From contig RXKC01000006.1 in the NCBI GenBank assembly GCA_003962975.1, positions 9,788-73,787 on the forward strand: a stretch of 64,000 nt of DNA. The letters run 5' to 3'. The stretch is from Candidatus Saccharimonadota bacterium. Lineage in GTDB: Bacteria > Patescibacteriota > Saccharimonadia > Saccharimonadales > AWTP1-31. The first letter of the stretch is position 1. Each line of letters starts with the position of its first letter. Made by a program: the position numbers and the translations under genes. Shown here piece after piece: positions 34,151-51,240 of the stretch. The notes beneath the pieces are model-generated. The model ran no database searches, was not told the origin of the DNA, and saw nothing but the letters and a program-made list of their open reading frames with translations.

Positions 34151-34915
34151 TTAGCTAGTGTCTCTTTGCTTCTTAACCCATTCTGCTAAATCTTTGTTGT
34201 TAATAGGTGGAGTCTTTGACATCTTTTTAACAGCACCCTCCATATTCTCATCAATCCTGACAAGCATCTTCTTGTCCTGTTTGGGGTGTGGTGGAGCTAG
34301 GATGTAGGCTTTGTGTTCTCGCCACATCTTACGTCTCATGACAGAAGCGTTGTATGTTCCGTCGCCGACAGCAATGACCGTAGCGTCATTGACCAGGTAG
34401 GGTATCTGCTGGCCGTCATGCTCATTGGCGGAAGTAAAGTAGACGGCAGCCAGCTGGCCCCTGGCATTACAGGCGGCATGTAACTTGAAACCGTAGTGCC
34501 AACCCTGCCAGTTTATGCCAAAGCCAGCTGCTGCCTTGGCTACTTTGTGCCGGTTGGCCCGTACCAGCTTACAAACATGTAGCATGGTACTGTCCATAAA
34601 ACGGACGGCTGCATCTTTGACCAACAGTTGGTCAAGCAGGCTTAGGAGGTGCGGTAATGCCTGGTGGCATTTCCGCACAAAGGATTTGTAGCTAGGAAGG
34701 CGGAACCTACGGTAGTAGTAGGTTTGAGCCCAAGTGTAGACACCTTTCATGGTGCGTTGTGGGGCTACAAAGCTAGAGAACAGCAGAAGTCCAATGACCT
34801 CATTGTTGTGTAGTATGACCGGCCTGCCACCCCAGGGGTTGGCGGCCGCCCTGGGAAGAAAGCTATCTACCACGGCTATTAGATTTGTAATATGATGTGA
34901 GCGTAGTACACGCAT
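34151..34915 (-). mobile_element. IS982-family-like DDE transposase gene (IS ends not identified; possibly short or degenerate)
   Basis: RFMDSTMLHVCK, GWHYGFKLHAACNARGQL, IAVGDGTYNAS match the IS982 layout from memory. The C-terminal region is atypical and no convincing terminal inverted repeats were found. Confidence 0.6.
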
Positions 34916-35582: not shown

Positions 35583-36635
35583 TTATTGCTTAGCCCACAC
35601 GTATACGGTACTACGAGTACTGCCCGACATGGTTAAATAACCATTATCTACCAGTGTTTTGAGCCTACGTTGCAAAGTTCGGCGCGGAACATTTGGCAGT
35701 ACGCTTTCGGCCTCGGCGAGCGATATGGAACCAAATTGTTTGGCATAGCTAAGCAGGTCAGCATCTTCCATGTTGATACGTTTCACTGGCTTATCCCCCA
35801 CTATAACATTGGATAATATCATGACTTCGACCGACAGTACTTTGGCGGATGACAAAAACCCTTCTGCGAAGTAGCTAATCCAGGGGTCGAGTAAGGCAGC
35901 AGTGGCAGTTTGGTAGTCTTCACCCTGGGCCCGGAGTGCGCTGTAGTATTCTCGTTTGTCTGTATAGTAGTACGAATCAAGTACCAGTGCGCCGCGAAAA
36001 TCATAATCATGCAGCCCAAGATAGAGCTGCGTAAGCACACGGGTGGTTCGGCCGTTGCCATCTGAAAACGGGTGGATAGACACGAATTGAAGGTGCAGGA
36101 TAGCCGCTGCGATAACTGGATGCACGTTATGATTATCTTTTAGCCACTCAAGTAGCGCAGTAATTTCTTCTTTTAGGATTATCTTGCTCGGTCCTTGATA
36201 AAGCACTCTGTCATCTTGATCGATAATATCAACGCCAACCGTACGCAAAGCTCCGGCTTTCTCGGAGGGCAGCAACCCTTCCATGACAAGCTCGTGGATA
36301 GTTAGTATGTCCGCAAGCTCGATTGGTTTGCCTGAAGCTTTACGCTTATCGATATAGCCCAGCGCTTTTTTATAGTTGCGCACCTCAATTTCGGCGTATT
36401 GGTGACGCGTCAGCACCGTGCCATCAGCCAACACTTGCTCAACTTGCTTGAGGTTTAGTGGATTACCTTCAATGGCGGTTGAGCTATGGGTGGCCTCAAC
36501 CGTTGCCCGATGGCGCAGTTCTATCTCGCGTTCCGGTAAGATTGGGCTGTGGGCAACTTGTGAACGGAGCGATTCAATCCTAGTTATAGTGGCGAGCAAG
36601 GCATCTGATATTTGGTATTTTGGATGGTATGCCAT
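35583..36635 (-). CDS. fic: Fic-family protein (AMPylase-type) with a C-terminal wHTH
   Basis: Active-site motif HPFSDGNGRTTR, N-terminal inhibitory-type motif STAIEGN, and a C-terminal wHTH (RRTLQRRLKTLVDNGYL). Confidence 0.9.
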   Translation of the reverse strand: MAYHPKYQISDALLATITRIESLRSQVAHSPILPEREIELRHRATVEATHSSTAIEGNPLNLKQVEQVLADGTVLTRHQYAEIEVRNYKKALGYIDKRKASGKPIELADILTIHELVMEGLLPSEKAGALRTVGVDIIDQDDRVLYQGPSKIILKEEITALLEWLKDNHNVHPVIAAAILHLQFVSIHPFSDGNGRTTRVLTQLYLGLHDYDFRGALVLDSYYYTDKREYYSALRAQGEDYQTATAALLDPWISYFAEGFLSSAKVLSVEVMILSNVIVGDKPVKRINMEDADLLSYAKQFGSISLAEAESVLPNVPRRTLQRRLKTLVDNGYLTMSGSTRSTVYVWAKQ

Positions 36636-36805: not shown

Positions 36806-38596
36806 CTACCGCCTTGCCCATCGGCGAGATATGTACAGTATGGTGATGGCAGCTAGGCTAGTAAGGGTTAGTGTAGCCAAAGGGTTATTGAGTAATAGCT
36901 GGAAACCGGTATTGGGTACACCAGGGATAAGACCAGCTAGGTTACCAGAACTAGGCGTGTTCCCGTTAGCGTTAGGTGAGTTAGTAGTAGCACCATAGAC
37001 AAAGCCAACGGCTGTCTGGCCTTGAGTTAGCGTTACGGTCTGAGCAGGTGGTGTTGGATAGCCACTGATAACCGGAGGGGTGAAGGTTTGAGTGGAGCCA
37101 AGACGGTAGTACAGATTAAAGTCATTGGTTGGGTTCTCTATAGCTAGGTAGCTATAGAGACCATCACCGACGACGGTGTCGTCTGGCTGTAGTTCATTGC
37201 CATTACCGTCACTATAGCTAATCAGCCCAGCAGCCGGATTGATAAGCTGAGCCGAGATAACGTCGGTGGTATCACCGTCTTGGTTGATATCTCCACCCTC
37301 ATCCACTTCTCGCCGGACACTGTCGGCCAGACCTAATGTACTTGCCTGAGAAGGGTCTATGTATATCCGTGTATAAATAATATTATCTACTAAGTCCGGG
37401 GCTACTTGGCTATCTTGATGATAAGACTCTATGCTTCTGACAAAATCATGGTAAGCTACGCCCTCTGTAGTAGTTTGAATAAAAAATGTAGTAGGATCTA
37501 GCGTAGTTACCGAATTTGGAATGGTTACTTCGGCAAGCCTGTTACCAGCCAAAGCAAACGCACCAATTGTGGTCACTGAATTTGGGATTACTATTGACTG
37601 TATGCCACAACCGAAGAAAGCATTATCGCTTATAGCAGTAATGCCGTTTGCGATAGTAACTGACGTTAGAGCTCGTAGGGCCATTGCGTATGGTCCAATA
37701 GCCGCCACCGAGGTGCCACCTATGATGCTGGGTATGTTAGCCACCATGCCGATACAGGCGTTGTTGTAAGTCTGCAGTACGGCAATATCTATGTGGTTAA
37801 ACCCCTCGATTGTCCCGGTCCCACTGTTAAATATATAGCACTGGTCGATAATTGGATCGCTTGATGTGTAGTTGTTGCCGTTGTAGGTAACCAGGCTCAC
37901 AGGGTTCATGCCAAACACAGAATATCCGGCGCTAAATGTCGTGCCCTGTATGTTTATACTGGTTATAGCATTACTCACGAAAGCAGTATCCCCAATACTG
38001 TTGACCGATGCAGGAAGCGTTAGTGACGTAATATTGTTAGATCGAAAAGCGTCTCCTCCAATTTGAACCAATGAGCTGTTGAGGCTTACTGTTGTTAGTA
38101 GATTTTGACTGAAAGCACTACTGCCAACGCTGGTAACGGATGGCGGCAAAACAACACTAGTAAGATTATTTTTTGCAAATGCCCCACCACAAGCTGTACG
38201 ATCTGCTATAACCTGTAAACTGCTAGGCAAAACAACACTGGTCAGGTTTTTCTCGCAAAAAGCACCGCCGCCTATATGCGTTACACTTTCGCCACCTAGA
38301 GTAGTTGGTATTTCGGGGTCTCTGGTACAGGCTGGTTGGAGGTTGTCGTTGTTCTGGTGGTCATAGTAATTGGTAATAGTTACCTGGCCAGGGTTTGGGG
38401 TGCTAGCGTTAATGGCAAAGCAAGAGTCTGGAGTGGGTGCAGCATAGACCTTTGAGTTGGTAGATAGGTTAAGTGCTGTGGTATATATACTAGCAAGTAA
38501 GACTACCGCAAGTAGTAGGCTGGTGGCTCGTTTGGTGAGCCTGCTTGTAGCCAAGCAAATAGTTATAAGAGATATTGGGGTTGGTTTGTGGCTCAT
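36806..38596 (-). CDS. BspA-type leucine-rich-repeat surface protein with a VPNTG sorting signal
   Basis: Repeats of the type LTSVVLPSSLQVIADRTACGGAF / NSVTTIGAFALAG. C-terminus is PGVPNTGFQLLLNNPLATL + TM + SRRWARR. Confidence 0.8.
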   Translation of the reverse strand: MSHKPTPISLITICLATSRLTKRATSLLLAVVLLASIYTTALNLSTNSKVYAAPTPDSCFAINASTPNPGQVTITNYYDHQNNDNLQPACTRDPEIPTTLGGESVTHIGGGAFCEKNLTSVVLPSSLQVIADRTACGGAFAKNNLTSVVLPPSVTSVGSSAFSQNLLTTVSLNSSLVQIGGDAFRSNNITSLTLPASVNSIGDTAFVSNAITSINIQGTTFSAGYSVFGMNPVSLVTYNGNNYTSSDPIIDQCYIFNSGTGTIEGFNHIDIAVLQTYNNACIGMVANIPSIIGGTSVAAIGPYAMALRALTSVTIANGITAISDNAFFGCGIQSIVIPNSVTTIGAFALAGNRLAEVTIPNSVTTLDPTTFFIQTTTEGVAYHDFVRSIESYHQDSQVAPDLVDNIIYTRIYIDPSQASTLGLADSVRREVDEGGDINQDGDTTDVISAQLINPAAGLISYSDGNGNELQPDDTVVGDGLYSYLAIENPTNDFNLYYRLGSTQTFTPPVISGYPTPPAQTVTLTQGQTAVGFVYGATTNSPNANGNTPSSGNLAGLIPGVPNTGFQLLLNNPLATLTLTSLAAITILYISRRWARR

Positions 38597-38835
38597 GGTT
38601 AGGCCGTTTTACTTTGTTTATTTTGTTTGATATTAGTTATCTGATATTGGTTATTTTATATGAGTTATGTTTATTTTGGATAACTGTTACAGGCAGTTTA
38701 GCATGAGGGGGATGGGAGTCAAGGCCGCCGTATATAGCTGATTACTGAATAATTATCTTGCTGGCCGTGAGGCCTGACGATCGGCGTGGTCTATGCGCCT
38801 GCCGGGCTAAGCAACAACTAGCTCTACTGCTAGAC

Positions 38836-40869
38836 TTAAGGCCGCTGGGCAATAATCCAGGCGTACAGGTAGCTGCGAGAATTGGCGCTGTCGATAGTGT
38901 CGGGCCGTAGCTTTTGGGCCAGCTCCAACTGCCCTGCGCTGCGGCTTTGGCTACTTGGACTACCTTGGCTGTCGTACATTAGGGCATAATCGCCAAACGG
39001 TGCGTCGTATGAGTTTAGGGCACCCAGCTCAGTAATGTGGCCAGCTCGAGCCTGGGGGATATCCGAAAATATACTTACCATCGAGGGGCTCATAGGTATG
39101 AGTTGAATACCAAGCTTGGCCAGTGGCTCGGCACTAAAGAACGTGGCATAGTCGCGTTTGCCTCCCCAATTGAGGGAGATTAAGTTATGGGCATAACCCT
39201 CTGAATATGGCTTCTTGGAACTATCGAAAGCCAGCCAATAACTCTTGGCGGACTGCACTTCATTGCTCAGCAGCCAACCAGCCTGAATCGCTAGTTCTGT
39301 GTTAGTTGTCTGTCTAGCCCATAACGACACTCCGATCCAAGCGTTAATTGCTTCCGATGATGATTCTTGGTTGTTGCCATCATTAAATGGCGAACTTCCG
39401 GATGCCCAAGAATGACCCATGTAGGGGTCAAAGACTCTTCGTAACGGCAACTTTTGGCCGTTTCGATAGTTGGCAATATCGGCCACCAACAGATCAATCG
39501 AGCTACGATATCGCTGCAGGAACGGTTTATCGTACTGAGCTAGAATACTAGCGGCGTAGATAAAATAGCCATAATGAAAGTGATGATCGTTGATCTCTTC
39601 TGACCCAAATGAAGGAGTAACGCCCACTACGCTCTGAATACGTGAGTCGTAATAAAAATATCGACCACCCTGGCTGGAAAAGTTCGAGAACCATGATTCC
39701 AGTTGTTGTCTTAGTTTAGTCTGCATAGTGGTGGCGATCTCTTGCTCTGCCAACTGATTGGCTAGCTGCAACAATTGTGCACTGCGATATAGTTCCTTGC
39801 CGGCGTAGTAGCTGTCTGCTGCAGAGTATGTGGTGGCGTTAATATCTTGGCGCAAGGTGGTTACCAGCAGTTCCCTCTGTTTGTTTGTCATTTTGGACAG
39901 ATCAAGAGAAGTTTCTACCGGGGCTCTAGGGGTTATAAAACTGAATAGCTGGCCACTAAGCATCTCTTGCTTTCCATAAATGGTTTCGTAGGCAAACATC
40001 GACTCAGAAGCAGACTGGTGATGTGGCATCATTCCGTAAACAGTTGGCTTATTGTTAATGGTAGAGATATTAATGGCCGTTCGGTAACCAGCATTGTTGG
40101 CCGAATAGCTAACTTCCGCCCCCATTATTCGATTGCCGGCAGTATGCTTTAGAGGGTCTTGATTAAGCGTAGCCGGCAGTGCATATAAACTAGCCAAACC
40201 ACCGGTGGGCATTGCCATCGATATACTTTGGCCACTAGCTGTTAATTCTGAACCGTTAAATCCAACTACGTGATAGCTAACCGTAGGCGTCTTATATTCG
40301 GCACTAGACGTAGCAGCGGTGGGGGTAGTCCCAGCCACCGACATAGACAGTTTAGCGGCAGACATTGACGAAAATTGAACATAAGGAGAGCCTTCTAGGA
40401 CAGTAACCAGCCCAATAGCCGTGCCGTCAGTGCGGTAGTATGTTAGGTCAAGAGATAACTCATCGTACCGGCTAACCATATAGTGGTTAGCGCCCTCTAC
40501 CTGAACTGTAGCTTTTTGTGAGACATCACTAGCGATAGAGTCAGCGGCTACCTCTACCTCAGGCAGGCTATAACTAAACGAGGTGCTAGAGGCCGTAAAC
40601 CCCAGTGGCATCGGAAAAACAGTCTTAGGTTGTTTTTGTAGAGCGAGACCGCTAAACCATTTGTTGGTAGGCGGAACAAGACCCGGGGCCAGATGGCTCG
40701 TGTCAATACCGCTAGAATCTCTCTGCTCTAAACCAGATAATACTGACTCATTTACGAGCGACACGCCTGTATGCTTGACAGAATTCTGTCTTGTTACAGC
40801 CAAGATACCTGCCGCTACTAATAAAAGTACCGTTGCAGTAGCAATGCCAAGCTTGACTGACCGCTGCAT
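38836..40869 (-). CDS. Membrane-anchored glycoside hydrolase family 81 (endo-beta-1,3-glucanase-like)
   Basis: N-terminal TM. GH81 hallmark EEINDHHFHYGYFIYAASILA. About 680 aa. Confidence 0.75.
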   Translation of the reverse strand: MQRSVKLGIATATVLLLVAAGILAVTRQNSVKHTGVSLVNESVLSGLEQRDSSGIDTSHLAPGLVPPTNKWFSGLALQKQPKTVFPMPLGFTASSTSFSYSLPEVEVAADSIASDVSQKATVQVEGANHYMVSRYDELSLDLTYYRTDGTAIGLVTVLEGSPYVQFSSMSAAKLSMSVAGTTPTAATSSAEYKTPTVSYHVVGFNGSELTASGQSISMAMPTGGLASLYALPATLNQDPLKHTAGNRIMGAEVSYSANNAGYRTAINISTINNKPTVYGMMPHHQSASESMFAYETIYGKQEMLSGQLFSFITPRAPVETSLDLSKMTNKQRELLVTTLRQDINATTYSAADSYYAGKELYRSAQLLQLANQLAEQEIATTMQTKLRQQLESWFSNFSSQGGRYFYYDSRIQSVVGVTPSFGSEEINDHHFHYGYFIYAASILAQYDKPFLQRYRSSIDLLVADIANYRNGQKLPLRRVFDPYMGHSWASGSSPFNDGNNQESSSEAINAWIGVSLWARQTTNTELAIQAGWLLSNEVQSAKSYWLAFDSSKKPYSEGYAHNLISLNWGGKRDYATFFSAEPLAKLGIQLIPMSPSMVSIFSDIPQARAGHITELGALNSYDAPFGDYALMYDSQGSPSSQSRSAGQLELAQKLRPDTIDSANSRSYLYAWIIAQRP

Positions 40870-40873
40870 CGTA

Positions 40874-41602
40874 CTATTGGCCGGAGGTCGGCCTTAACAG
40901 AGACTGAACTTTATTCTTAACGGCACTATACCAAGTGTCCGAGTCTAAATGCAGCGTAGTAGTTAATGGTGTGCCAACAGAAAAAGCTGTCTTGTTTATA
41001 GCGTCTTGATTAAATCTGGCTCTGACGGTTGTGAGCACTTCTTTATCGACAGTGCTCAGTTTAAAGTCGTAGACACTACCTTCGACCTGTTTATCGTCTG
41101 GAAAAACGATGGTCAGCTTACTGTTGGTATTGAGCCTGGAATAATCAGGTGAAGACAGTTTGTAGGTAGCTTCCACATATAGCTTGTTCTCTATGTTTAT
41201 GGTGGCTATCTGACTGTTCGCCGGCACAAATGCCCCACGACGATAACCAATAGACTGAACCTGCCCAGGGGCAGCCGCCGAAATGGTGACCAAGCCATCA
41301 TTAGTTAAGGAATACAGTAAAGATGACTTGGCGACATCATTGTTTCTAATGGCATCACTGAGCGTTGGGCTACGTAGTGCAAACAATGGATCTTTAGTCT
41401 TGATATAGGCACCCTCGTCAACAAATTGTTTTTCGATGATACCCGAATAATCTACGCCTACCGTGTAATTGTCGGACTGTAGTCGAGCGTCGATTGAATC
41501 TACCTTGGACATAGAATAATTCAGATACATAAACAACCCGGCACAAACCAACACCACCGCCAGCATGCCAGCTAAGAATTTTATTCTTACTACCGGTTTC
41601 AT
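40874..41602 (-). CDS. HlyD/membrane-fusion-type protein lacking a coiled-coil hairpin
   Basis: N-terminal TM. Lipoyl-like halves GIIEKQFVDEGAYIKTKDPLFAL and APGQVQSIGYRRGAFVPANSQIATI, followed by a beta-barrel region. Confidence 0.6.
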   Translation of the reverse strand: MKPVVRIKFLAGMLAVVLVCAGLFMYLNYSMSKVDSIDARLQSDNYTVGVDYSGIIEKQFVDEGAYIKTKDPLFALRSPTLSDAIRNNDVAKSSLLYSLTNDGLVTISAAAPGQVQSIGYRRGAFVPANSQIATINIENKLYVEATYKLSSPDYSRLNTNSKLTIVFPDDKQVEGSVYDFKLSTVDKEVLTTVRARFNQDAINKTAFSVGTPLTTTLHLDSDTWYSAVKNKVQSLLRPTSGQ

Positions 41603-43128
41603 ATATTATCTCCTTTTATGTGTGCTAATTTATTGTGATTTGCTCGTCTCATACTTTTAGCCTCTCTGGCTGCCACCCACACAAAATATCCAAAAATAAA
41701 GGTATTAAGTGCTGACCATATAATCGACACCGAGAACTCCCTGGTGTAAGCACTCTTCCATATGCCTATCAAAGTAGTAATGCCCAAGAAAAGGAATACG
41801 TATACTTGGGCACGCATATAGTTAAAGGGTGAGTCATAGGAATCGACACGATTTGTAGCTTGCCATGATTCGTCTTGTCCACGCAAAGCATTGAAAAATG
41901 CCTTAATGTATATCGGAAACGATACCGCAGACAGCATCAACGTTTCAAACTGTAACTTACCCATCACATAGACAGACAGTACCAGCTGAGTTAGATAAAA
42001 ACCAGAATACAACAAAGCCCACTGCCAGACGGGTATACTGAGGGCAATTGGCGTAAGGTTAAGATATATCTGTAAAGCTGGCAAAAGCAATAATCCGGCA
42101 ATAGCAAAGCCATTAAAGTAGAACATCGTGGAATAAAGATACTGAATTCGTTGGTCTACAGTTAACCCCCTGTTAAAAAGTGGGTTACGTTTTAGGAATA
42201 TTTCAAAACTACCTGTCGCCCAACGAAGTTGTTGCTTTGAGTAGGCTTTGATTGTTTCGGGAGTCTTGCCGATTGCCATAACTCGATTAATATATACCGA
42301 CCTATAGCCATGTTCGTGTAATATCATTGAGGTCCAGATATCCTCGGACTTTGACTGCTGGTATACACCCCCCATGGCCATGACCGCACTACGACGAAAC
42401 ATTACATTAGTGCCCACGCAAAAAGCAGCATTAAATTTATTCTTGCCAACCTGAACCAAAGAATAGAATATATGCTGCATAAAACCAGCTCCACTAGAGA
42501 TAAAATTGACTTGGTTGCTATAGAATTGCGGTGTCTGCACTAGCGCCATCCGAACATCTTCAAAAAATGGTAGAGTTTCGATAATAAAATAGCTATTAGC
42601 CACAAAATCGGCATCTAAGATTACGAAAAACTCACCATTAGTCTTGCTCAGGGCGTGGTTAATGTTCCCTGCCTTGGCATGTTTATGCTCGGCACGTCGC
42701 ATATAGCCGACACCTACGCTGGCTGCCATAGCTTTAACCTCGTCTGAATTACCGTCGTCTAGAATATAGGTAGCGTGCTTGCCATAGAGCCCTTTGGCCG
42801 CCAAGGCAGTCTGTCGTATTTCGCTGACCGGCTCTCCATATACTGGAATGAATACATCGACAGAAACTGGCTTAGAGTTAATATACATCTGCTTGTCTAA
42901 AGTGGTCATAGTTTTGTATGACTTGATATCTTTAATAACCGTTTTAGTAAAGTCGCCAAAAATATTGTTCTTGGCATTGTAATACCCGAAGTGCCTTGGA
43001 TTAATCCGGCCGCTCAGAATAGTCCAGAATGACATCGATCCCAAAATAATAAAAAATAACTCCGAAACAATTACCATGGCGTAAGGCAAAGCGTCGCCTC
43101 TATAGCCAGGTTGCAATAAAAACACCAT
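41599..43128 (-). CDS. Processive family-2 glycosyltransferase (BcsA/CrdS-like beta-glycan synthase), no PilZ domain
   Basis: ILDDGNSDE, HAKAGNINHAL, VILDADF, SEDIWTS, QQLRWATG, and multiple TMs. The reading frame stays open 141 nt upstream without a canonical start. Confidence 0.8.
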   Translation of the reverse strand: MVFLLQPGYRGDALPYAMVIVSELFFIILGSMSFWTILSGRINPRHFGYYNAKNNIFGDFTKTVIKDIKSYKTMTTLDKQMYINSKPVSVDVFIPVYGEPVSEIRQTALAAKGLYGKHATYILDDGNSDEVKAMAASVGVGYMRRAEHKHAKAGNINHALSKTNGEFFVILDADFVANSYFIIETLPFFEDVRMALVQTPQFYSNQVNFISSGAGFMQHIFYSLVQVGKNKFNAAFCVGTNVMFRRSAVMAMGGVYQQSKSEDIWTSMILHEHGYRSVYINRVMAIGKTPETIKAYSKQQLRWATGSFEIFLKRNPLFNRGLTVDQRIQYLYSTMFYFNGFAIAGLLLLPALQIYLNLTPIALSIPVWQWALLYSGFYLTQLVLSVYVMGKLQFETLMLSAVSFPIYIKAFFNALRGQDESWQATNRVDSYDSPFNYMRAQVYVFLFLGITTLIGIWKSAYTREFSVSIIWSALNTFIFGYFVWVAAREAKSMRRANHNKLAHIKGDNI

Positions 43129-43403
43129 ATAAACTATGGCGCCTATTACCGCAGAAAGAAGAATTAGTGTAACCGATGGCGAAGTTAGATGCTTCTCTAG
43201 TTGACCAACCCTCCTTACGGTAGCCTTCAGTGATTTTTGACTATGAACGCTGATAAGGAGTTTCTTTGCTTATATTTGAGTAAATATAACTTAGTTTAAC
43301 ACTTTGTTGTTGCATGGGCAACTATTACTGTCTTGCTCGGTAATCTACGGCCGGCCCTATTAGTAACTCTCATGTGGAAGCTGCCCTTTGGCCAACCCAG
43401 CCT

Positions 43404-44633
43404 CTATTCACGGCGTAAGGCTTCGGTTGGGTCGATGGTCTCTGCTCGTCTGGAGGGGAAAAAGGCGACCAGAAAACCAACTATGACCATCAGTAACATC
43501 AGCACCAAGACCAGCCAAAGAGGTGTAGAAAATAGCTGGAAGCTTTCCGCAACTCCGCGCGATTTAGCGAGTTTATTAAGTAAGATATTCGCTAACTGAC
43601 CAACTAACACAGCTCCGGCCATGCCGATTGCCGAACCAATTACGGCCAGCAATGTGGCCTCGCCAATAAAAATGCGGCGCATATCGCGCCGACGACCACC
43701 CATTGCAAACATCAAACCGATCTCTTTGGTGCGCTCTAGTAGTGAAACCGTTAGGGTATTAAACATACCCAGCACGGCCACAATCATACCAATTGCTCCG
43801 AAACCAACCAGAGCAAATGTGAAATATTTAAATATTTGATTAACTTGGTCTAGGGTGTCTACTGGCGATGTTGTTTCAAAACCGATACTCTCTATTTGCC
43901 GTCTTATTTGGGGGATGTCCTCTACATTATTAACGGCCAATTTAAGCTGGGAGTACTTTGACTGACCGCCATCCTGGAAAACTCTAGCAGGGACAAATAC
44001 GATATTCTCTGACTCGCTTTTTACGACGCCTACTACTTTCATCTTTGTTTTAAGAGTCTTAGGATTTTCTGAGTCAGCAGCCTTAAAAGGAATATCCAGA
44101 TCAATCGTCTTACCAATGATATCCTTTGGGTTGTTGACACCAATAGTTCGTAGCTTGTCGGTACTAACAATTGCTACGTTGCTGTCTTTATCTGTAAACC
44201 TCCGCCCCTCGCTGATTGCCAGGTCGGATAATGATTGATACCCTTCGTCTACACCGTAGGTTGGACCACTAGACTCACTACCCTTATATTTGATAATGCC
44301 AGGGGCAGCAAAAAGCACCCCTACCTTCTGAACATTTGGCAACTGACGAATACGATTTGCAGCTCTATTGTCTAAGGTCACAATGCCAGACTTAGCGCTG
44401 GTAATATCAACTGTCTTTATCGAGTTACCACCGACTAGCTTATCGGACACCAGATTCTGCAGACCAAGACTGATAGACATCAGGAAAAAAATGGCACCAA
44501 TTCCGACAGCAATACCAATGACCGTCAAAGATGTGCGCAACTTTTTGTATAGCATGTTCTTCCAGACCATGAAAAATATTGCACTCAGTGGAGCTGCCGT
44601 ATACCGACCTTTTCTAAAGCTTAGCAGTCGCAT
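43404..44633 (-). CDS. FtsX/MacB-type ABC permease with a large extracytoplasmic domain
   Basis: KKLRTSLTVIGIAVGIGAIFF (TM1), a loop of about 220 aa, and three C-terminal TMs with ERTKEIGLMFAMGG. The start may be an internal Met (44570 or 44555). Confidence 0.8.
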   Translation of the reverse strand: MRLLSFRKGRYTAAPLSAIFFMVWKNMLYKKLRTSLTVIGIAVGIGAIFFLMSISLGLQNLVSDKLVGGNSIKTVDITSAKSGIVTLDNRAANRIRQLPNVQKVGVLFAAPGIIKYKGSESSGPTYGVDEGYQSLSDLAISEGRRFTDKDSNVAIVSTDKLRTIGVNNPKDIIGKTIDLDIPFKAADSENPKTLKTKMKVVGVVKSESENIVFVPARVFQDGGQSKYSQLKLAVNNVEDIPQIRRQIESIGFETTSPVDTLDQVNQIFKYFTFALVGFGAIGMIVAVLGMFNTLTVSLLERTKEIGLMFAMGGRRRDMRRIFIGEATLLAVIGSAIGMAGAVLVGQLANILLNKLAKSRGVAESFQLFSTPLWLVLVLMLLMVIVGFLVAFFPSRRAETIDPTEALRRE

Positions 44634-45411
44634 GGCGTTTGAGCTCCTTATTCTGTTTGATTTCTTGTTCTACCTCATTCATTAATGTCTTTATTTGAGC
44701 CGAGGTCTTATCGGGTGCGACATCAAGCACCCGACCATCTTCGATTTTCAGCAAGTGATCGGCTAAAGTTATATAGCCCATGTTATGCGTAACAACGATA
44801 ACCGTCCGTCTAAATACGGCCTGACTGTCAATTAAAAGTTTCATGATGTTACGGCTATTTTCGCTATCTAGATTGCCAGTTGGTTCATCAGCAATAATTA
44901 GCAACGGACTATTGGCCAGAGCCCTGGCCATGCCGATCCGTTGTTGTTCACCGCCAGATAGCATGATAGGACTTTTTTTGGCATAGCTAGCCATACCTAC
45001 GTAGTCTAGTGCTTGCATAGCCATTTTTAGACCCTCTTTCTTGGTGTAGCCAAGGAAAAATAATGGCACCGTCACGTTATCTAATACGTTAAGGCTTTTT
45101 ATCCAATAATTTGCCTGGTGCACAAAGCCCACCTTGTTAGCCCGATGGGCAGCCAACTCATCTGGGGACAAGGCATAAATGTCTTTGCCTCCAACTATTA
45201 CTTGACCCGATGAGGGTGCTTTAAGGCCAGCCAGTATATCTAGTAACGTCGATTTACCGCTACCCGACGAACCGTAAATAATATTGAAACTATTGGCCTT
45301 AATATCAAAGTTTATGTCAGTCAAAACCGTAACTTTTTCGTCGCCAACATCAAAAACCTGATTCACCCCAGTAACACTCATCAAGACCGAGTCATCATAT
45401 GTTTTTGTCAT
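44614..45411 (-). CDS. ABC ATP-binding protein (MacB/LolD/FtsE type)
   Basis: [36 protein letters not shown]. The ATG directly follows the TAA of the giant gene. Confidence 0.9.
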
Positions 45412-48400
45412 TTAGAATCCAAATATCCCCTTAATTGTAGTCAGCACAATGGTTATGACATCATTGCTAGCCCGACCAATAATTGCCGTGTCGACACCAC
45501 CCAAACCAATATTCTTTGATTTATCGGCCGATAACGGCTGGACAGAATATACTTTAGAGGTCGAGACGTCCGAGATTACCACCACATGGTCCGTGGTTAA
45601 GGCAGTGTCCTCGGCACTCTTGTTCTGTAAGCCAGTAGCCTGTGATCCTTCAGCAAAGGCTACCTGGCTAGTAGACGGTTCGTCAGTCTTCCAGCTAATA
45701 ACAATCTGGCCTCTAGCTTCAGCCCCCATGCCGCGCACCGAGGTTTCGATGACGATGTCGCTAATCTTAGGCGGCCTGGTATCCAGCGCCGTGCGCAGAG
45801 TCTGCGCCTCGGAAGTAGCAATATTACCTCCAGCATCACGTGACTCGGCTAAGAGTCTGTACTCGGTATCATCAACCAAGCCCCTAACTACAATTTTGTG
45901 ATCTGTTTTGAGGACTGAATCAGACAATTCTTGGGCAGCCAGCCCCGTAGATGTGAGCCTGATAAGAGAAGTTGTTGGTACATTAGTGTTCCAGGTAATA
46001 ACCTGAGAACTAGTTGGTTCACCTGCGAGTGGCTGAAAATGCAGATTAGATATCCTGGGTCGGGCTGGTGTAGTAAAGGAGTATAGATCGCCCCGGTATT
46101 CACCGCCCTCATTGTCATACAAAGTAACTCTGAAGAAGTATTTTGTATCATCATCCAAACCAGTTAATTCAATATTGTAAGTAGACTCACTAAGTGAAGT
46201 GTTAACGCTCTGTTCACCGCCCAAAGATTCGGACTTGCCGTAATGGATGGCTGCCCTTGAGGCATCTTTTGAAGTAAAGCCCAGCAGCGCACTAGACAAT
46301 GACACTCTGTCAGTTTTGACCTCTTTAACAACGGGCGCCGGTGCGGTCGTAAAGCTAAACTCACTTGATACGCCAGTATTGCCATCTTCGTCCGTCCACC
46401 TGGCAACCATATAGTATTTAGTACCAGCGTCAAGGTTGTTTAACTCGATGCTATGGTATGTAACCTGGGAGGAATTACTAATTTCAGCCGCAAAGTAACT
46501 GCCCGGAGCCTTGCCAACAGCAATTTTGCTATCGCTCTCTCGGTTGGTAGACCAGTTTACTTGCGCTCGCTTTGTCGTAATATTGGTCACAACCGGACGG
46601 GCAACTAGTTCGGCCGGTTCGGTGTAGCGTCCGGTCGGTATCAGACTCACTGTCGAGCCGTTAACACCGCAGTTATTTGCGCTATCACAAGCTTTAACTC
46701 GGTAATAGTACCTTTTGGCAGTCTGCAGCCCAGAATCAACATAGCTCAGTCCGGCGGTAGTAGCGATCTGAGAGAATGCAGAGTTATCCTCTGACCTAAA
46801 GATTCTATAGTTAGCAACTCCGGCTCCACTGTCGGTAGGTGCCGCCCAGCTGAGAGCCAACTTCCAGTTAGCAATTGCTCTGGTAGAGATATCAGCAATC
46901 TCAATATTAGTAGGAATACCAGGAGCAGAAGTATTAGCCGTGAATTTTACACTCTCGTAGGTAGCGTAATTAATGTTATTGGCTTCGTCTTGGGCAACCA
47001 CATAGAAGGTGTTCTCGCCAGGCTGAGTGGCAAATGGGCCGGCTGGCACTGCAGTAACACCAGCAGCAGTAAAGGTGCAGGTCTGGGCCGTTGGCAATGT
47101 ATTAATCGTATAGCAATACTTCAGCCCACTCGCGCCACCAACAAAACTATTAGGAACCGCCCAATTAAAAGCGAATGAGTTAGTAACATTAGTGGCAGGT
47201 GTTGCAGTTACAGAACGGGGTTGAGACGGCGCCGACGTATTAACTTTAATGACAGCCGTCGTGTAACTGGTCGAGAAGTTTCCAGCTTGGTCTACTGCTC
47301 TAAAGTAGACTATGTTGTTGCCTTCTATCATATTAGGGTAGTCTATATTTTCATCTGTGCGGTACGAGCCATTATTCGGCAGAATATCGGTAATATCCTG
47401 TGCGCCATTATGTGCTACCCCGTACCATGTGCCCTCACCGCCAATACGATATTGCAAGCCAAGCAAGCCACTGTGGCCATCGTTAGCCATCTGATCGCCA
47501 GTTGTTGGCCAGGTCAATGTCACGTCTCTAGAGGCCAAGAACTGCGACGGTGCAGACACAAACCCCGGGGCGTTGGGAGCCAAGTTATCAAATCTAAAAT
47601 GGAAATCTTCGGATGCGCCTTGGTATAGATTATTAGAATTATCGAGCACCTTGATTTTTATATAGTAAGGGCTCGTTGCCGAGGCTAACGGGGTAGATAA
47701 CAAACCCGACGTTGCTAGATTTAGACTACTAGAGCTAACTGCAAAAGGACAGGCATTATCGGTGTCTATCTGGCTTGAGCCTAAATACCCTTTATCACTA
47801 GCCGGGTTAGCTGCTGCGTTAGGACCTAGATACAGGCAGTAGCCCTTAACGCCGCTCGCTCCCGGTGAGTTATCATCCTGACCTGGACTCCACTGAAAAT
47901 ATGGGCTATTGGTTGACACCCAAGCATTTTCGGCAATCACATTGCCTGTTAAGCCAGTTTTCATAATAATATTGTCTGCGTTGTCTGAGGGGGGATTAAT
48001 ATCTGGGTTAATTGTAATGTCTACTCCATTCAATACTATCGCCTGCGAACCGTTGCTAACAAGATATGCCTTCCATTTAAAGTCCCGCGTACCAACCGGG
48101 AAATCTTCGATATGCTGGTCGATTGTCGCGGCCGTACTATACTCGCCACTACCTGCAGGAGCCCAACTAGCCCCGTCCCAGTAGTGATAGGTCAAACCGT
48201 CATCGTTAGAGATCTGGTAGTATATCTCGCCACCATTCTTGGTGGCCGATTCGGTAAAAGATTGCCAGCTAGCCACTGCCGCCGGTGAATAAGCCTGATT
48301 AGGTTCGATAGTTGGTGCATCAAGAGCATACCGTTTGCCTACAAAAGAAGCCCCGCTGTCGGTAGTGCCCACAACCATCCGATTTTCGTCGATCACCTTA

Positions 48401-51240
48401 ACCGAGTTAAACTCGTTACTAGCTATATTGGGTATAGAATTTTTATCTATCGTCTGCCCGATAACAGGGGTATTGGTAGTGACCCCATCTATCCTCAAGA
48501 TACGGCCGTCCTGTACGGCGCTAGAGTTATGAACCGAGTAATAGCGATTATTAGCCACATCCATACTGCTGTTACTAATACGAATTGGCGCATACCCAGG
48601 CAAGGTTGTATTATTAAGCTCCACTTCACTAGTTAGGGAAGAATAGCCACCGTAGCCGGTATATTTAACACGAAGATAACGAGCTGTTGTAGTACTAAAC
48701 GATGTGTCATGGCTGGTACTAGCTCCGTAATAACTAGCCGCCTGTGCCAAACCGCTAATACTCTTCAGCTGAGTTACTGTTCCGCTGTCGAAAGCCGTGT
48801 TATACACTTTCATTTCCCGAATTCCAAAATGTGTATTAGGTACGTATGTGCTAAGTACTTTTATCCGTACAGACTTTACGGTAGTCTGAGCAAAACTGCT
48901 GAGCTTAGCCATTGATGAGTTATTAGTAACAGTCGCCAGCGTGCTAACACTCCCTGACTCAAACATAGAAGAATACGGCTCAACTTCAAAAATCCTTACC
49001 CCATCAGAACCATTATGATTACCCGATTGTGTAACATGTATCCTTATATACCTACCCGTCACAGGCGAACTAAAAGTCACCCTGTTGTATTGACTCGTAT
49101 TATTCGCTGCAGTATGAGCGGTAGACCAGCTTGAAGCATCATTACTATACTGGACAGTATAGTCTTTAGTTGTGTACCCATACTCTGTCACCCATGATAA
49201 GCCAGCAACTGTCTGCGAGCTGCCCAGGTCTAACTGCAACCATTGTGGGGCGGTAGAGGTAGGAACACCACTTATCCAGCGACTACCTAAATTGTTGTCG
49301 TATGTTTTTTGGGCATTATAATTTGCATCATTGCTGTACAGACTTGATGCCGTTGCTCCAACCACAGTTATTGGGGTCGTCAACGAAGAACTACCCTCGA
49401 TCTCGTAATTCTTCCCACCGCTATTCTGATCATGGAACTGCATATCCACGGCACTAATCTGCTGAGGGCTAGCAAAGCTTAGTTCAAAAAGTGGCCCAAC
49501 TTGGTTCGCAGGAAATCCAGAGTAGAACGAGTTACCAAAGTTATTGTCTATAGCATTATTGCTCAAATGACCTGCGCCATAAGCCCACTGGCTACGCGGG
49601 GTAGCGCTGGTTGCTATATTTGCTGATGTACCCTGAGTGCTAGCTTCTATAGTATAGGCCGAGGGCATATAGCGAACATCCGACCAAAAAAATTGCCTCA
49701 GATGGTTAAAAGTCTTAGCGGAGCCTAGGTCAAACTCTAGCCACTCATCCATTTGATTCGACTGCCCTATATAATGACTACCTAAATTATTGTCGTTGAC
49801 GTTAGTAGCCACCCCTGTCCTAGCCTGCACCTGGGCACCGGCTAGTAAATTTGCCCCTTTGGCACTATTGGCAAATGCATTAATGGTGCTAGCCGAGGGC
49901 GTGACCCTATTTTCCTGAATAATAATCAACCCGTCGTCGGATTCTACGTATATAGTGTTGTTGCCAGCATTGGCGGTAGATGTTCCTTCTGTCACCTTAA
50001 GGCCGGTAAATTTGCGCTTGGGTGGGTCTGGCCCGTGCAGTGGCGCCCAGTCATTACCATAATCTACCGAAGTGGCTGTCCAGCTCCAATCCGCCAACTG
50101 ATTTATGGCTCCATACTTTACCAATATAGCACCGCCCGTACCCATGCCGTTTTCACGTAAGTCGTAATACATGGTACCGTCGCTGGTTAATACGGCTCCC
50201 GTTATAAACCAACCGCCCGGAGAGAGCGCCTTAACAATACTTGGCGTGCCTTGGTCGTCCTTAATAACATGAGCATGAGTACCTGTCGTAACACTGAGGT
50301 ACACCTTGCCAGCAATAGTTATAGTGTTTATCCTCTTGACATCTTGGTCGGTCATGGCCGGGCTGGAAGTAGTCGAGTATCTAGGGGTGCCGAGTGCAGT
50401 GTTATTGCCCAGGCTACTAATCTGCCATCTGTATATCCCACCGTTTTTACCGGCATACAAATAACCATCGGCTACCGCTACTGTTCTAAAGCCACCGCCA
50501 GCCATAATAAACGCCGATCGTTGCCAAGTATCCTGACGGATAACATCGATACCTAGATCGCTGGACACAAAATAATAACTACTGTCCGCCGTTACATCCA
50601 AGATATTGTTGGATTGCAACTGACCATCGGCTACCGAAAAGTTCTTAACTGCGTCACTAAGTTTAAGCCGTAAGTTATTACTGTTAGCCTCTATCTTGCT
50701 GCCATTAAAACTGTAGTCGCCCGGATTGTTAAAGTTCCAGGAAAATCCGGTATCGGCCGCCAGTGTACGAGCCCCCAGCCCAACAAAACTAACCACTGCT
50801 ACCAGTACTATAAGCCCATGCACATGTCCATGATGCAGCCATTTGTACTGCCAACTATGCCACCGGTTGTAAAGGTTGGATCTGTCCATAAGGTGCTGGT
50901 GAGGACGATGAGCTATATGATGATGGGTAGTTCGGTAATGCCTAATAAGCCTACTACCTAGTTTGGTTCTGGCTAGTGGGGCTAGTGCCGGGCGTAGTAG
51001 TTTGCGAACCACTTTTGTAAACAAGGTGATAGCCAAGTTAACAACGTAGGCTAGATGTAACATGAGTTGCAGTAGCCAACACAAGACAGATCGAATCGGA
51101 CGCAGGGCACGTCGTAAGCGAGCTCGTAACAAAACCAATCTAGAACTCGTTATTTTGGAGTCCTGGCTCACCTCTGGTGACGATATCTTTTTAGGCTCTG
51201 AAGTCTTTAGGGGTTGCTTATTACTTTTCATGTTTGGCAA
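45412..51240 (-). CDS. Giant (1942 aa) N-terminally anchored surface protein with discoidin (F5/8 type C)-like and FN3 domains
   Basis: TM LIVLVAVVSFVGLGA. Discoidin-like NLGSRWISG..WLQLDLG..YTVQYSND. FN3 YRIFRSEDNSAFSQI..YYYRVKA. Four C-terminal PAP-N-like FN3 repeats. TTG 51240 and ATG 51231 are both possible starts. Confidence 0.8.
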   Translation of the reverse strand: MPNMKSNKQPLKTSEPKKISSPEVSQDSKITSSRLVLLRARLRRALRPIRSVLCWLLQLMLHLAYVVNLAITLFTKVVRKLLRPALAPLARTKLGSRLIRHYRTTHHHIAHRPHQHLMDRSNLYNRWHSWQYKWLHHGHVHGLIVLVAVVSFVGLGARTLAADTGFSWNFNNPGDYSFNGSKIEANSNNLRLKLSDAVKNFSVADGQLQSNNILDVTADSSYYFVSSDLGIDVIRQDTWQRSAFIMAGGGFRTVAVADGYLYAGKNGGIYRWQISSLGNNTALGTPRYSTTSSPAMTDQDVKRINTITIAGKVYLSVTTGTHAHVIKDDQGTPSIVKALSPGGWFITGAVLTSDGTMYYDLRENGMGTGGAILVKYGAINQLADWSWTATSVDYGNDWAPLHGPDPPKRKFTGLKVTEGTSTANAGNNTIYVESDDGLIIIQENRVTPSASTINAFANSAKGANLLAGAQVQARTGVATNVNDNNLGSHYIGQSNQMDEWLEFDLGSAKTFNHLRQFFWSDVRYMPSAYTIEASTQGTSANIATSATPRSQWAYGAGHLSNNAIDNNFGNSFYSGFPANQVGPLFELSFASPQQISAVDMQFHDQNSGGKNYEIEGSSSLTTPITVVGATASSLYSNDANYNAQKTYDNNLGSRWISGVPTSTAPQWLQLDLGSSQTVAGLSWVTEYGYTTKDYTVQYSNDASSWSTAHTAANNTSQYNRVTFSSPVTGRYIRIHVTQSGNHNGSDGVRIFEVEPYSSMFESGSVSTLATVTNNSSMAKLSSFAQTTVKSVRIKVLSTYVPNTHFGIREMKVYNTAFDSGTVTQLKSISGLAQAASYYGASTSHDTSFSTTTARYLRVKYTGYGGYSSLTSEVELNNTTLPGYAPIRISNSSMDVANNRYYSVHNSSAVQDGRILRIDGVTTNTPVIGQTIDKNSIPNIASNEFNSVKVIDENRMVVGTTDSGASFVGKRYALDAPTIEPNQAYSPAAVASWQSFTESATKNGGEIYYQISNDDGLTYHYWDGASWAPAGSGEYSTAATIDQHIEDFPVGTRDFKWKAYLVSNGSQAIVLNGVDITINPDINPPSDNADNIIMKTGLTGNVIAENAWVSTNSPYFQWSPGQDDNSPGASGVKGYCLYLGPNAAANPASDKGYLGSSQIDTDNACPFAVSSSSLNLATSGLLSTPLASATSPYYIKIKVLDNSNNLYQGASEDFHFRFDNLAPNAPGFVSAPSQFLASRDVTLTWPTTGDQMANDGHSGLLGLQYRIGGEGTWYGVAHNGAQDITDILPNNGSYRTDENIDYPNMIEGNNIVYFRAVDQAGNFSTSYTTAVIKVNTSAPSQPRSVTATPATNVTNSFAFNWAVPNSFVGGASGLKYCYTINTLPTAQTCTFTAAGVTAVPAGPFATQPGENTFYVVAQDEANNINYATYESVKFTANTSAPGIPTNIEIADISTRAIANWKLALSWAAPTDSGAGVANYRIFRSEDNSAFSQIATTAGLSYVDSGLQTAKRYYYRVKACDSANNCGVNGSTVSLIPTGRYTEPAELVARPVVTNITTKRAQVNWSTNRESDSKIAVGKAPGSYFAAEISNSSQVTYHSIELNNLDAGTKYYMVARWTDEDGNTGVSSEFSFTTAPAPVVKEVKTDRVSLSSALLGFTSKDASRAAIHYGKSESLGGEQSVNTSLSESTYNIELTGLDDDTKYFFRVTLYDNEGGEYRGDLYSFTTPARPRISNLHFQPLAGEPTSSQVITWNTNVPTTSLIRLTSTGLAAQELSDSVLKTDHKIVVRGLVDDTEYRLLAESRDAGGNIATSEAQTLRTALDTRPPKISDIVIETSVRGMGAEARGQIVISWKTDEPSTSQVAFAEGSQATGLQNKSAEDTALTTDHVVVISDVSTSKVYSVQPLSADKSKNIGLGGVDTAIIGRASNDVITIVLTTIKGIFGF

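Follow-up and report, generated by a model that had tools for sequence, protein, structure and literature searches.

What does a bacterium make with a glycosyltransferase, a membrane-fusion protein (MFP) and a glucanase whose genes lie head to tail on one strand? The question is raised by a 64,000-nucleotide stretch of the genome of a Candidatus Saccharimonadota bacterium (GenBank assembly GCA_003962975.1, contig RXKC01000006.1, positions 9,788 to 73,787), called here the window, whose coordinates are used throughout. On its minus strand three open reading frames (ORFs) follow each other, 43128-41599 (509 aa) for a family-2 glycosyltransferase (GT2), 41602-40874 (242 aa) for an MFP-type adaptor and 40869-38836 (677 aa) for a glucanase of glycoside hydrolase family 81 (GH81). 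An original prediction, made from the sequence alone, had read this trio as an operon that makes, exports and trims a beta-1,3-glucan. In the present analysis the make, export and trim interpretation is supported, and we consider it fairly probable that the trio is a self-contained synthase-dependent exopolysaccharide system with a beta-1,3-linked, curdlan-like product. The beta-1,3 linkage is suggested by the matched GH81 enzyme, by a CrdS-like FCVGT loop in the synthase and by the presence of the operon in Cellulomonas; both the linkage type and the role of the adaptor are proposed here conditionally.

The motifs quoted in the original prediction were all found in the translations, namely ILDDGNSDE, HAKAGNINHAL, VILDADF, SEDIWTS and QQLRWATG in the GT2 and NDHHFHYGYFIYA in the GH81. 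The gene junctions also read as had been stated, with an ATGA overlap at 41599..41602 (minus strand), in which the ATG of the MFP gene lies on the TGA of the GT2 gene, and a 4-nt spacer at 40870..40873 (minus strand) between the MFP stop codon and the GH81 ATG. In GenBank the three proteins stand under a Saccharibacteria metagenome-assembled genome (MAG) as RTK94589.1 (glycosyltransferase), RTK94588.1 (HlyD family adaptor) and RTK94587.1 (hypothetical protein, the GH81). The trio is identical on three other metagenome contigs, and the great majority of the homologs of each of the three proteins come from Candidatus Saccharibacteria.

Conservation of the three genes as a unit

We examined the conservation of the trio by a GH81 profile scan of one genome per GTDB species, from which the 80 best loci were kept with 10-kb flanks; trio order was scored by tblastn in the 70 of them that have 3.3 kb or more upstream. 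In 58 of these 70 informative loci, GT2, MFP and GH81 follow one another in this order on one strand. The trios of Saccharibacteria encode GT2s that are 60-70% identical to the window GT2. Those of Actinomycetota, spread over dozens of genera, show identities to the window of 45-51% for the GT2, 23-41% for the MFP and 32-39% for the GH81; the genera include Cellulomonas, Cellulosimicrobium, Isoptericola, Sanguibacter, Microbacterium, Leifsonia, Curtobacterium and Demequina, as well as Nocardioides, Nakamurella, Microlunatus, Friedmanniella, Propionicimonas, Micropruina, Tessaracoccus and Georgenia. Versions of the trio were also found in two other phyla of the Candidate Phyla Radiation (CPR). 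In the divergent version of Peribacteria, GT2 and GH81 are separated by a 237-aa ORF with a transmembrane (TM) segment and a lipoyl domain, which overlaps each of its neighbours by 4 nt. In the rearranged version of a Moraniibacteriota MAG (locus L051, 9710-16266) the order is GH81, a 684-aa multi-TM protein of unrecognised family, GT2 and a 258-aa MFP, in which a short coiled coil is suggested when the sequence is read by eye.

When the ORFs of the 80 loci were clustered all against all, the only recurrent families were GH81 (80 loci), MFP (68) and GT2 (63); the other large clusters were judged, from their strand and coordinates, to be antisense shadow ORFs over the trio genes. Neighbour-joining gave GT2 and GH81 trees that agree with each other: the Saccharibacteria form a monophyletic group (100% support) and adjoin a tight actinobacterial radiation, with the other CPR sequences outside. 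In 60 loci from other species, an exact 4-nt start/stop overlap is possible at 47 of the GT2-to-MFP junctions and at 39 of the MFP-to-GH81 junctions. From the shared order, the congruent trees and the overlaps we therefore conclude that the three genes are inherited and arranged as one unit, and very probably translated as one.

The GH81s linked to a trio form one clade with 98% support. Partnerless actinobacterial GH81s (Timonella, Jonesia, Miniimonas) are nested within this clade, which therefore indicates secondary loss of their partners. Orphan GH81 genes without GT2 or MFP also occur in Paenibacillus and in bacteria of the Planctomycetes-Verrucomicrobia-Chlamydiae (PVC) group. The orphan of Timonella sp. 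A28 (L049, 10001-11830), with no GT2 or MFP nearby, has lost the catalytic glutamate pair and its NDHHFHY motif is altered; this copy looks to be decaying or repurposed. Two trios carry unexpected taxonomic labels. One, labelled Dongiaceae, is Saccharibacteria-like (GT2 66% identical; L007), and another, labelled Acidobacteria, is placed among Actinomycetota in the GT2 tree (L052); both contigs are probably mis-binned in their MAGs.

The synteny survey that the original prediction had proposed thus finds the three genes co-conserved in Saccharibacteria, Actinomycetota and two more CPR phyla. Far from being the curiosity of one epibiont, the trio is widespread in Actinomycetota and CPR bacteria and strictly conserved as a module. 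The original prediction had also placed it in a reduced-genome, surface-attached host; a Saccharibacteria MAG agrees with this description, but the operon is not peculiar to such epibionts, as most of the sampled carriers are free-living Actinomycetota.

A BcsA-fold synthase without PilZ

The GT2 (41599..43230, minus strand, when read from the start codon discussed below; the mechanical ORF begins at ATG 43128) was recognised by the Pfam families Glyco_trans_2_3 (86 bits) and Cellulose_synt (52 bits). Against the NCBIfam models for CelA/BcsA it scored far under the cut-offs, with 238.7 bits for TIGR03030 (cut-off 699) and 204.7 for NF008558 (cut-off 992), and by these profile scores it is classed as a member of the superfamily and not as a cellulose-synthase equivalog. 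The protein aligns with residues 273-700 of Escherichia coli BcsA, and the alignment ends where PilZ begins. No PilZ domain was matched in the GT2 by Pfam. The tail after the last TM helix has only 18 aa, compared with 114 in CrdS, 129 in BgsA and 160 in a BcsA; the short tail and the end of the BcsA alignment therefore indicate that the protein has neither PilZ nor a BgsA-like cyclic di-GMP (c-di-GMP) module.

An AlphaFold model of the GT2, built with 30 homologs (pLDDT 77, pTM 0.77), presents two TM helices at the N-terminus and four to five helices at the C-terminus, besides a GT-A domain and an interface helix with QQLRW. Foldseek searches with this model placed BcsA on top (E values 7e-26 to 1e-21, TM-scores 0.58-0.67), followed by plant CesA and hyaluronan synthases. 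The motifs DDG, KAGN (HAKAGN in the window), DAD, QTPQ, SED and QQLRW are kept in 57-61 of the 61 family members.

A membrane-anchored GH81 glucanase

The third gene of the trio (38836..40869, minus strand) was claimed to encode an anchored GH81, and it scores as one over its full length. The catalytic (alpha/alpha)6 domain PF17652 was matched with 194.2 bits (cut-off 25.6), and residues 58-604 align with the Clostridium thermocellum enzyme CtLam81A (6fop; E 7.6e-58). Further structural matches are Bacillus halodurans BhGH81 (E 1.9e-50) and Rhizomucor RmLam81A, and the full-length similarity takes in the N-terminal beta-sandwich domain. The motifs NDHHFHYGYF, GHSWASG and DGNNQESSSEAINAW agree residue for residue with solved GH81 structures. 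The catalytic-site motif NDHHFHYGY (residues 427-435) is encoded at 39565..39591 and the catalytic glutamate pair ESSSE (E502 to E506) at 39352..39366, both on the minus strand. The signature is intact: D428, E502 and E506 are invariant in the GH81 alignment (A1) and the catalytic signature is kept in all trio-linked GH81s inspected; the DGNNQES.SE motif is conserved in every one of them, being lost only in the orphan Timonella copy. The window protein thus belongs to the GH81 family, and endo-beta-1,3-glucanase activity is predicted for it from its sequence. Characterised GH81 enzymes cut curdlan, pachyman and laminarin, and do not cut barley mixed-linkage glucan, carboxymethylcellulose (CMC), cellulose or pustulan (PMC9609564).

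The sole hydrophobic segment of the protein spans residues 7-25, and such an N-terminal anchor is also found in 63 of 74 relatives. We read it as a putative type II membrane anchor that would leave the enzyme outside the cell. The GH81 of Cellulomonas fimi was detected in the culture supernatant and has no Sec/Tat leader (PMC4780727), which fits a membrane anchor.

A short membrane-fusion-type adaptor

The protein encoded between the two enzymes (40874..41602, minus strand) had been described as an anchored membrane-fusion-type protein without a long hairpin, a description borne out by profile, model and fold searches. In the comparison with hidden Markov models, HlyD_3 was passed with 31.1 bits (cut-off 22.2), while HlyD_D23 reached 29.3 (cut-off 30) and TIGR01730 35.5 (cut-off 94.9). 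The AlphaFold model (pLDDT 83.4) shows one TM helix (residues 3-31) and beta-rich domains, and at the position of the hairpin only an 8-residue helix (79-86), compared with the long coiled coil of canonical adaptors. Foldseek searches with the model returned ZneB, EmrA, MacA, MexA, AcrA, CusB and BesA with E values of about 1e-10 to 1e-8, and the fold is, according to the model, a lipoyl (barrel-sandwich) domain plus a beta-barrel. The tightest superposition was obtained with BesA of Borrelia burgdorferi (rmsd about 4 A over 196 columns, 12-13% identity), which we take to be a hairpin-less membrane-fusion protein. Unlike the window adaptor, BesA is part of a resistance-nodulation-division efflux pump in a diderm spirochaete.

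A profile search among 1.84 billion representatives yielded 165 relatives of the adaptor at E<=1e-10, and nearly all the full-length ones measure 235-250 aa; the short form is therefore the norm of the family. No specific homology of the window MFP to CrdA or BgsB was detected by BLASTP or by hhalign (probability 0.3% and 20%). Contact of the MFP with the synthase would be consistent with the synteny, and is proposed on that ground.

Evidence on the linkage of the product

Operons for synthase-dependent polysaccharides typically encode a hydrolase for their own product, as is the case for BcsZ, XcsC, PslG, PelA and AlgL. In addition to the matched GH81, the synthase itself was compared with the residues that Oehme et al. 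tabulated as separating the cellulose, curdlan and mixed-linkage synthase clades, among which V318 and T320 are specific to the curdlan clade (PMC6821405). Of the 33 clade-specific positions in their S8 Table (PMC6821405), 32 were mapped onto 61 trio synthases in RsBcsA numbering, by means of reference sequences damaged by optical character recognition, so that the mapping is unreliable in TM helices. The acceptor-site loop (42409..42423, minus strand), aligned with residues 316-320 of BcsA, reads FFCGS in BcsA, FCCGS in BgsA and FCVGT in both the CrdS ortholog and the window. C317, V318 and T320 of the window agree with the curdlan-clade loop, F-C-V/I-G-T. Within the trio family each position of FCVGT is kept in at least 59 of the 61 members, and the loop is also present in two other CPR synthases. 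Five residues, F249, Q276, Q298, C317 and Y376, are common to the trio synthase, CrdS and BgsA and are not those of cellulose synthases.

The distribution of the trio also bears on the product. A curdlan-type exopolysaccharide is produced by Cellulomonas flavigena and, in small amounts, by other cellulomonads (PMC3544764, PMC3035266). In the Cellulomonas genome papers the candidate GT2s were only 35-39% identical to CrdS, the re-utilisation of curdlan was called unclear, and a GH81 was present in every genome (PMC3544764, PMC3035266). The trio was found in four sampled Cellulomonas species (L020, L038, L044 and L060). Moreover, in a Friedmanniella MAG a CrdC-like ORF (L014, 583-1695) lies directly 5' of the trio (E 1.6e-28, 31.5% identity across 384 aa). 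No other of the 80 loci has such a match, which is possibly a direct link to curdlan operons.

Several observations weigh against the trio as a beta-1,3-glucan system. At the 32 mapped positions the window synthase is a mosaic, matching CrdS at 9, BgsA at 10 and BcsA at 8, and Y302, H351 and S357 are like those of cellulose synthases. Its identity is 30% to the CrdS ortholog, 33% to BgsA (GT domain) and 31.6% to BcsA, which makes it equidistant from the three, and its relatives are named 'cellulose synthase (UDP-forming)' in JGI. The partner role of the adaptor is argued from fold and synteny only, the protein having no specific relationship to CrdA or BgsB. Finally, C. gelida was reported as a non-producer of curdlan exopolysaccharide (PMC3035266), and C. 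gelida NBRC 3748 (L060) carries an apparently intact trio; either regulation differs in this species or the product of the trio is not a classical curdlan exopolysaccharide.

Two ways of assigning the linkage were tried and set aside. The clade-specific positions taken as a whole gave a mosaic in which only the FCVGT loop is clearly CrdS-like, and neither pairwise identity nor tree placement was informative, given that the trio clade is equidistant from CrdS, BgsA and BcsA. In the GT2 tree the trio clade is separate from CrdS and from BgsA; the trio synthase is not a member of the CrdS clade, and works like CrdS at best.

Comparison with known synthase systems

Saccharibacteria, other CPR bacteria and Actinomycetota are taken to have no outer membrane, and the rationale of bridging to TolC would therefore not apply to the adaptor of the trio. 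The design of a GT2 synthase without BcsB, accompanied by a partner of MFP fold and with or without a hydrolase, is already known from the Xcs, Bgs and Crd systems. In Synechococcus elongatus and Nostoc punctiforme, operons encode XcsA (a synthase with PilZ), XcsB (HlyD-like) and XcsC (an endoglucanase), with exit through TolC proposed (PMC12430437); they have also been called 'type IV bcs operons' (Maeda et al. 2018, reviewed in PMC12430437). As in the trio, synthase, HlyD-like protein and endoglucanase are encoded together. The Xcs system differs in the PilZ domain of XcsA, the cellulase-type hydrolase, the cellulose product and the proposed bridging of XcsB to TolC in a cell with two membranes, whereas the trio has no PilZ and no hairpin and has a GH81 as its hydrolase.

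The rhizobial genes bgsB (HlyD) and bgsA direct the synthesis of a mixed-linkage beta-glucan for which TolC is needed (PMC13438883). Here a PilZ-less GT2 is co-transcribed with a HlyD-family adaptor that is needed for the polymer, and the GT domains of the two systems are one third identical, as given above. Unlike the trio, the MFP gene precedes the GT2 gene, BgsB has 410 aa and not 242, the operon contains no glucanase, the acceptor loop is FCCGS, and about 130 aa at the C-terminus of BgsA form a c-di-GMP-binding domain that the trio synthase does not possess.

For the curdlan operon, the first CrdS candidates, chosen by plasmid annotation, turned out to be true BcsA-BcsB pairs. With the CrdS sequence from a paper supplement, the crdS ortholog was recognised on the Agrobacterium tumefaciens plasmid pAtCG920 (L088, 551-5484), where a GT2 79% identical to CrdS is annotated as 'cellulose synthase catalytic subunit'. 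In this crdASC-like operon the upstream protein, of 484 aa, passes the HlyD_3 cut-off, and the downstream one, of 426 aa, is matched by no Pfam family; an MFP-like partner, CrdA, is therefore part of the curdlan operon crdASC as well. The trio resembles crdASC in the proposed beta-1,3-glucan, in a GT2 of the BcsA superfamily with the FCVGT loop and in the HlyD-like protein; it differs from it in that the synthases are as little as 30% identical, CrdS has the longer tail, no glycoside hydrolase is encoded in the crd operon and the host is proteobacterial. With the Bcs system (BcsA-BcsB-BcsZ-BcsC) the trio shares a synthase of BcsA fold, an extracytoplasmic partner and a matched endoglucanase in the operon, but it has no PilZ, BcsB or BcsC, a GH81 takes the place of the GH8 enzyme and FCVGT that of FFCGS. 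No BcsB-like sequence was detected in the window (E<=0.1) or in the 80 loci, and no homolog of CrdA, CrdC or BgsB in the window.

The trio is thus set apart by its GH81, by a synthase without a c-di-GMP receptor domain, by an adaptor of half size without hairpin or specific homology to CrdA or BgsB, and by hosts that are taken to have a single membrane. Starr et al. took the Saccharibacteria genes separately, reading from them a 'capacity for biosynthesis of cellulose' on the one hand and the hydrolytic breakdown of fungal 1,3-beta-glucan on the other (PMC6031116). Full-text searches, mostly without subscription journals, returned no paper linking GH81, GT2 and MFP in one operon in Saccharibacteria or Actinobacteria. 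The original prediction had not recognised the architecture as a described system. In this it was too broad, since the combination of synthase, MFP and glycoside hydrolase is known from xcsABC (compare also bgsBA and crdASC); it stands for the GH81-bearing, PilZ-less and hairpin-less version, which appears to be undescribed.

Proposed mechanism and alternative explanations

In the mechanism that we propose, the GT2 would act as a membrane-embedded processive synthase that polymerises glucose from UDP-glucose at the cytoplasmic face and passes the chain through its own TM channel. The 242-aa single-pass adaptor, devoid of a TolC-docking hairpin, would sit on the outer face of the membrane beside the synthase and play a role akin to that of BcsB, CrdA, BgsB or XcsB, either receiving and guiding the emerging chain or assembling the synthase complex; in cells taken to have no outer membrane, 'export' by the MFP is a putative role. 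The GH81, tethered by its uncleaved N-terminal anchor with the catalytic domain outside, would cut beta-1,3 linkages and so free the nascent polymer, set its size or clear it away, as BcsZ, XcsC and KORRIGAN do for cellulose. The start/stop overlaps would couple the translation of the three proteins. As the synthase has no PilZ or other c-di-GMP module, control would presumably be transcriptional or by substrate supply. The donor may well be UDP-glucose, the three proteins may be in physical contact, and the polymer could serve as a surface matrix or in attachment.

Other products have to be weighed against a curdlan-like one. A mixed-linkage beta-1,3/1,4-glucan or a branched beta-glucan, in which the GH81 would cut only the beta-1,3 bonds, would accord with the pairing of GT2 and MFP seen in bgsBA, with the BgsA-clade residues, which outnumber those of CrdS by one, and with the identity to BgsA. 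We regard it as rather unlikely, as GH81 enzymes generally do not cut barley mixed-linkage glucan (PMC9609564), the loop is that of CrdS and not of BgsA, and the short tail leaves no BgsA-type c-di-GMP domain (18 versus 129 aa). Cellulose, with a GH81 of unrelated or relaxed specificity, is suggested by the JGI annotation, by the way Starr et al. read the Saccharibacteria homolog (PMC6031116), by the best PDB and NCBIfam matches, which are to BcsA/CelA, and by the three BcsA-like residues Y302, H351 and S357. It becomes improbable in view of a CelA score of 239 bits, far under the cut-off of 699, the replacement of FFCGS by FCVGT, and the absence of PilZ and BcsB; moreover, where cellulases are found in cellulose operons, the hydrolase that is strictly co-inherited here comes from a family inactive on cellulose and CMC.

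The three genes might also not act together. The GH81 could be a nutritional or predatory laminarinase directed against fungal or host glucans and merely adjacent to an unrelated GT2/MFP pair, as Starr et al. took Saccharibacteria beta-1,3-glucanases to serve feeding on fungal walls (PMC6031116); orphan genes exist in Paenibacillus and PVC bacteria, and secreted GH81s with carbohydrate-binding modules degrade yeast walls (PMC9609564). This is very improbable for the trio, in which order and strand persist from phylum to phylum, 4-nt overlaps recur and the trees agree; the enzyme carries a membrane anchor instead of a cleaved signal peptide with carbohydrate-binding modules, and the actinobacterial orphans nest in the trio clade, one of them without its catalytic residues. 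Assigning the MFP to the upstream exporter of MacB type (43404-45411), an ATP-binding cassette (ABC) transporter, and not to the synthase, is hardly credible. MacB-type permeases usually work with an MFP, and this one lies on the same strand within 2 kb; yet the MFP stays between GT2 and GH81 and overlaps the GT2 stop codon, while the gap between permease and synthase is 173-275 nt. ABC genes are absent near all 80 related loci, and the MacB-adaptor reading is effectively refuted by this synteny.

Significance of a possible beta-1,3-glucan operon

The trio is probably an unassigned gene set for a curdlan-like surface glucan in bacteria without an outer membrane, and it offers a concrete, easily testable candidate for curdlan synthesis in Gram-positive bacteria. 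If the product is a beta-1,3-glucan, this would be the first assignment of curdlan-synthesis genes outside Proteobacteria, the Cellulomonas papers having left both the synthase and the re-utilisation open. It would also provide a compact, portable three-gene module to make and size curdlan, a commercial polymer, in Gram-positive hosts, and the rule that beta-glucan synthases without BcsB (Xcs, Bgs, Crd) have partners of MFP fold would be extended to cells without an outer membrane. The Saccharibacteria genes once read as 'cellulose synthesis' and 'fungal-wall degradation' would become one machine acting on the cell's own polymer, and a conserved surface glucan in obligate epibionts would, if real, be a candidate for host attachment or protection.

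A wider proposal is possible, and on balance we hold it doubtful: the trio would be at once the missing genetic basis of the curdlan-type glucan of Gram-positives (Cellulomonas and many other Actinomycetota) and a conserved surface-glucan machine of Saccharibacteria and other CPR, exchanged as a unit between Saccharibacteria and the phylum from which their hosts come, and producing the matrix that glues the epibiont to its host. The wider proposal would also put the adaptor fold to a new use, with a hairpin-less MFP serving, in a cell with a single membrane, as the extracytoplasmic partner of a polysaccharide synthase.

Start codon of the synthase gene

The original prediction placed the GT2 at 41599..43128; the ORF, its motifs and the absence of PilZ hold, but another start codon is more likely. 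All GT2 relatives have an extra N-terminal TM helix (...QLTSPTVTLIL...GAxVY...), and the window encodes the same helix in frame just 5' of ATG 43128. Between the in-frame stop codon and this stretch there is no ATG, GTG or TTG. The closest homolog (81% identity) starts MKATVRKVGQLEKH / MKATVRKVGQLEKHLTSPSV, and the aligned reading of the window is L(CTG)KATVRRVGQLEKH / L(CTG)KATVRRVGQLEKHLTSPSV, so that CTG 43230 lines up with the Met start of the homolog. The DNA of this region is identical in three independent assemblies. The conserved upstream helix, the start of the homolog and the identical assemblies therefore point to CTG 43230-43228 as the most likely start, giving a predicted protein of 543 aa; the public gene calls, at 496 and 509 aa, are cut short. 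A strong AAGGAGG was noticed within the extension (about 43211-43217); no start codon follows it at a suitable spacing.

Surroundings of the trio

The sole sizeable non-coding gap on this strand is the intergenic stretch 5' of the synthase (43231..43403, minus strand), which is presumed to hold the promoter. Scans for promoter and terminator consensus sequences (38300-43700) gave counts equal to those of shuffled sequence, and an Rfam scan of the window found four tRNAs only, with no riboswitch near the operon.

Surface proteins are abundant around the trio. Upstream, the MacB-type ABC exporter consists of an ATPase (44614-45411) and a permease (43404-44633) on the minus strand and comes without a dedicated MFP. 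On the same strand, within the upstream region 43404-51240, a 1942-aa protein carries two F5/8 type C (discoidin) carbohydrate-binding domains together with fn3/Ig domains. The association of this discoidin protein and of the exporter with the trio is strain-specific. Downstream, also on the minus strand, the genes at 36806-38596, 35583-36635 and 34151-34915 encode, in that order, a BspA-type leucine-rich-repeat surface protein, a Fic-domain protein and an IS982-family transposase, which hints that the conserved trio is bordered by a variable region of surface or mobile genes.

Farther away, on the plus strand (54776-61188), a SASA-type carbohydrate esterase (54776-56221) is followed, after a 4-nt overlap, by a protein of 1656 aa. 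Its C-terminal HATPase_c is the sole clear domain, besides a weak Ig domain; the protein is histidine-kinase-like and unusually large for a reduced genome.

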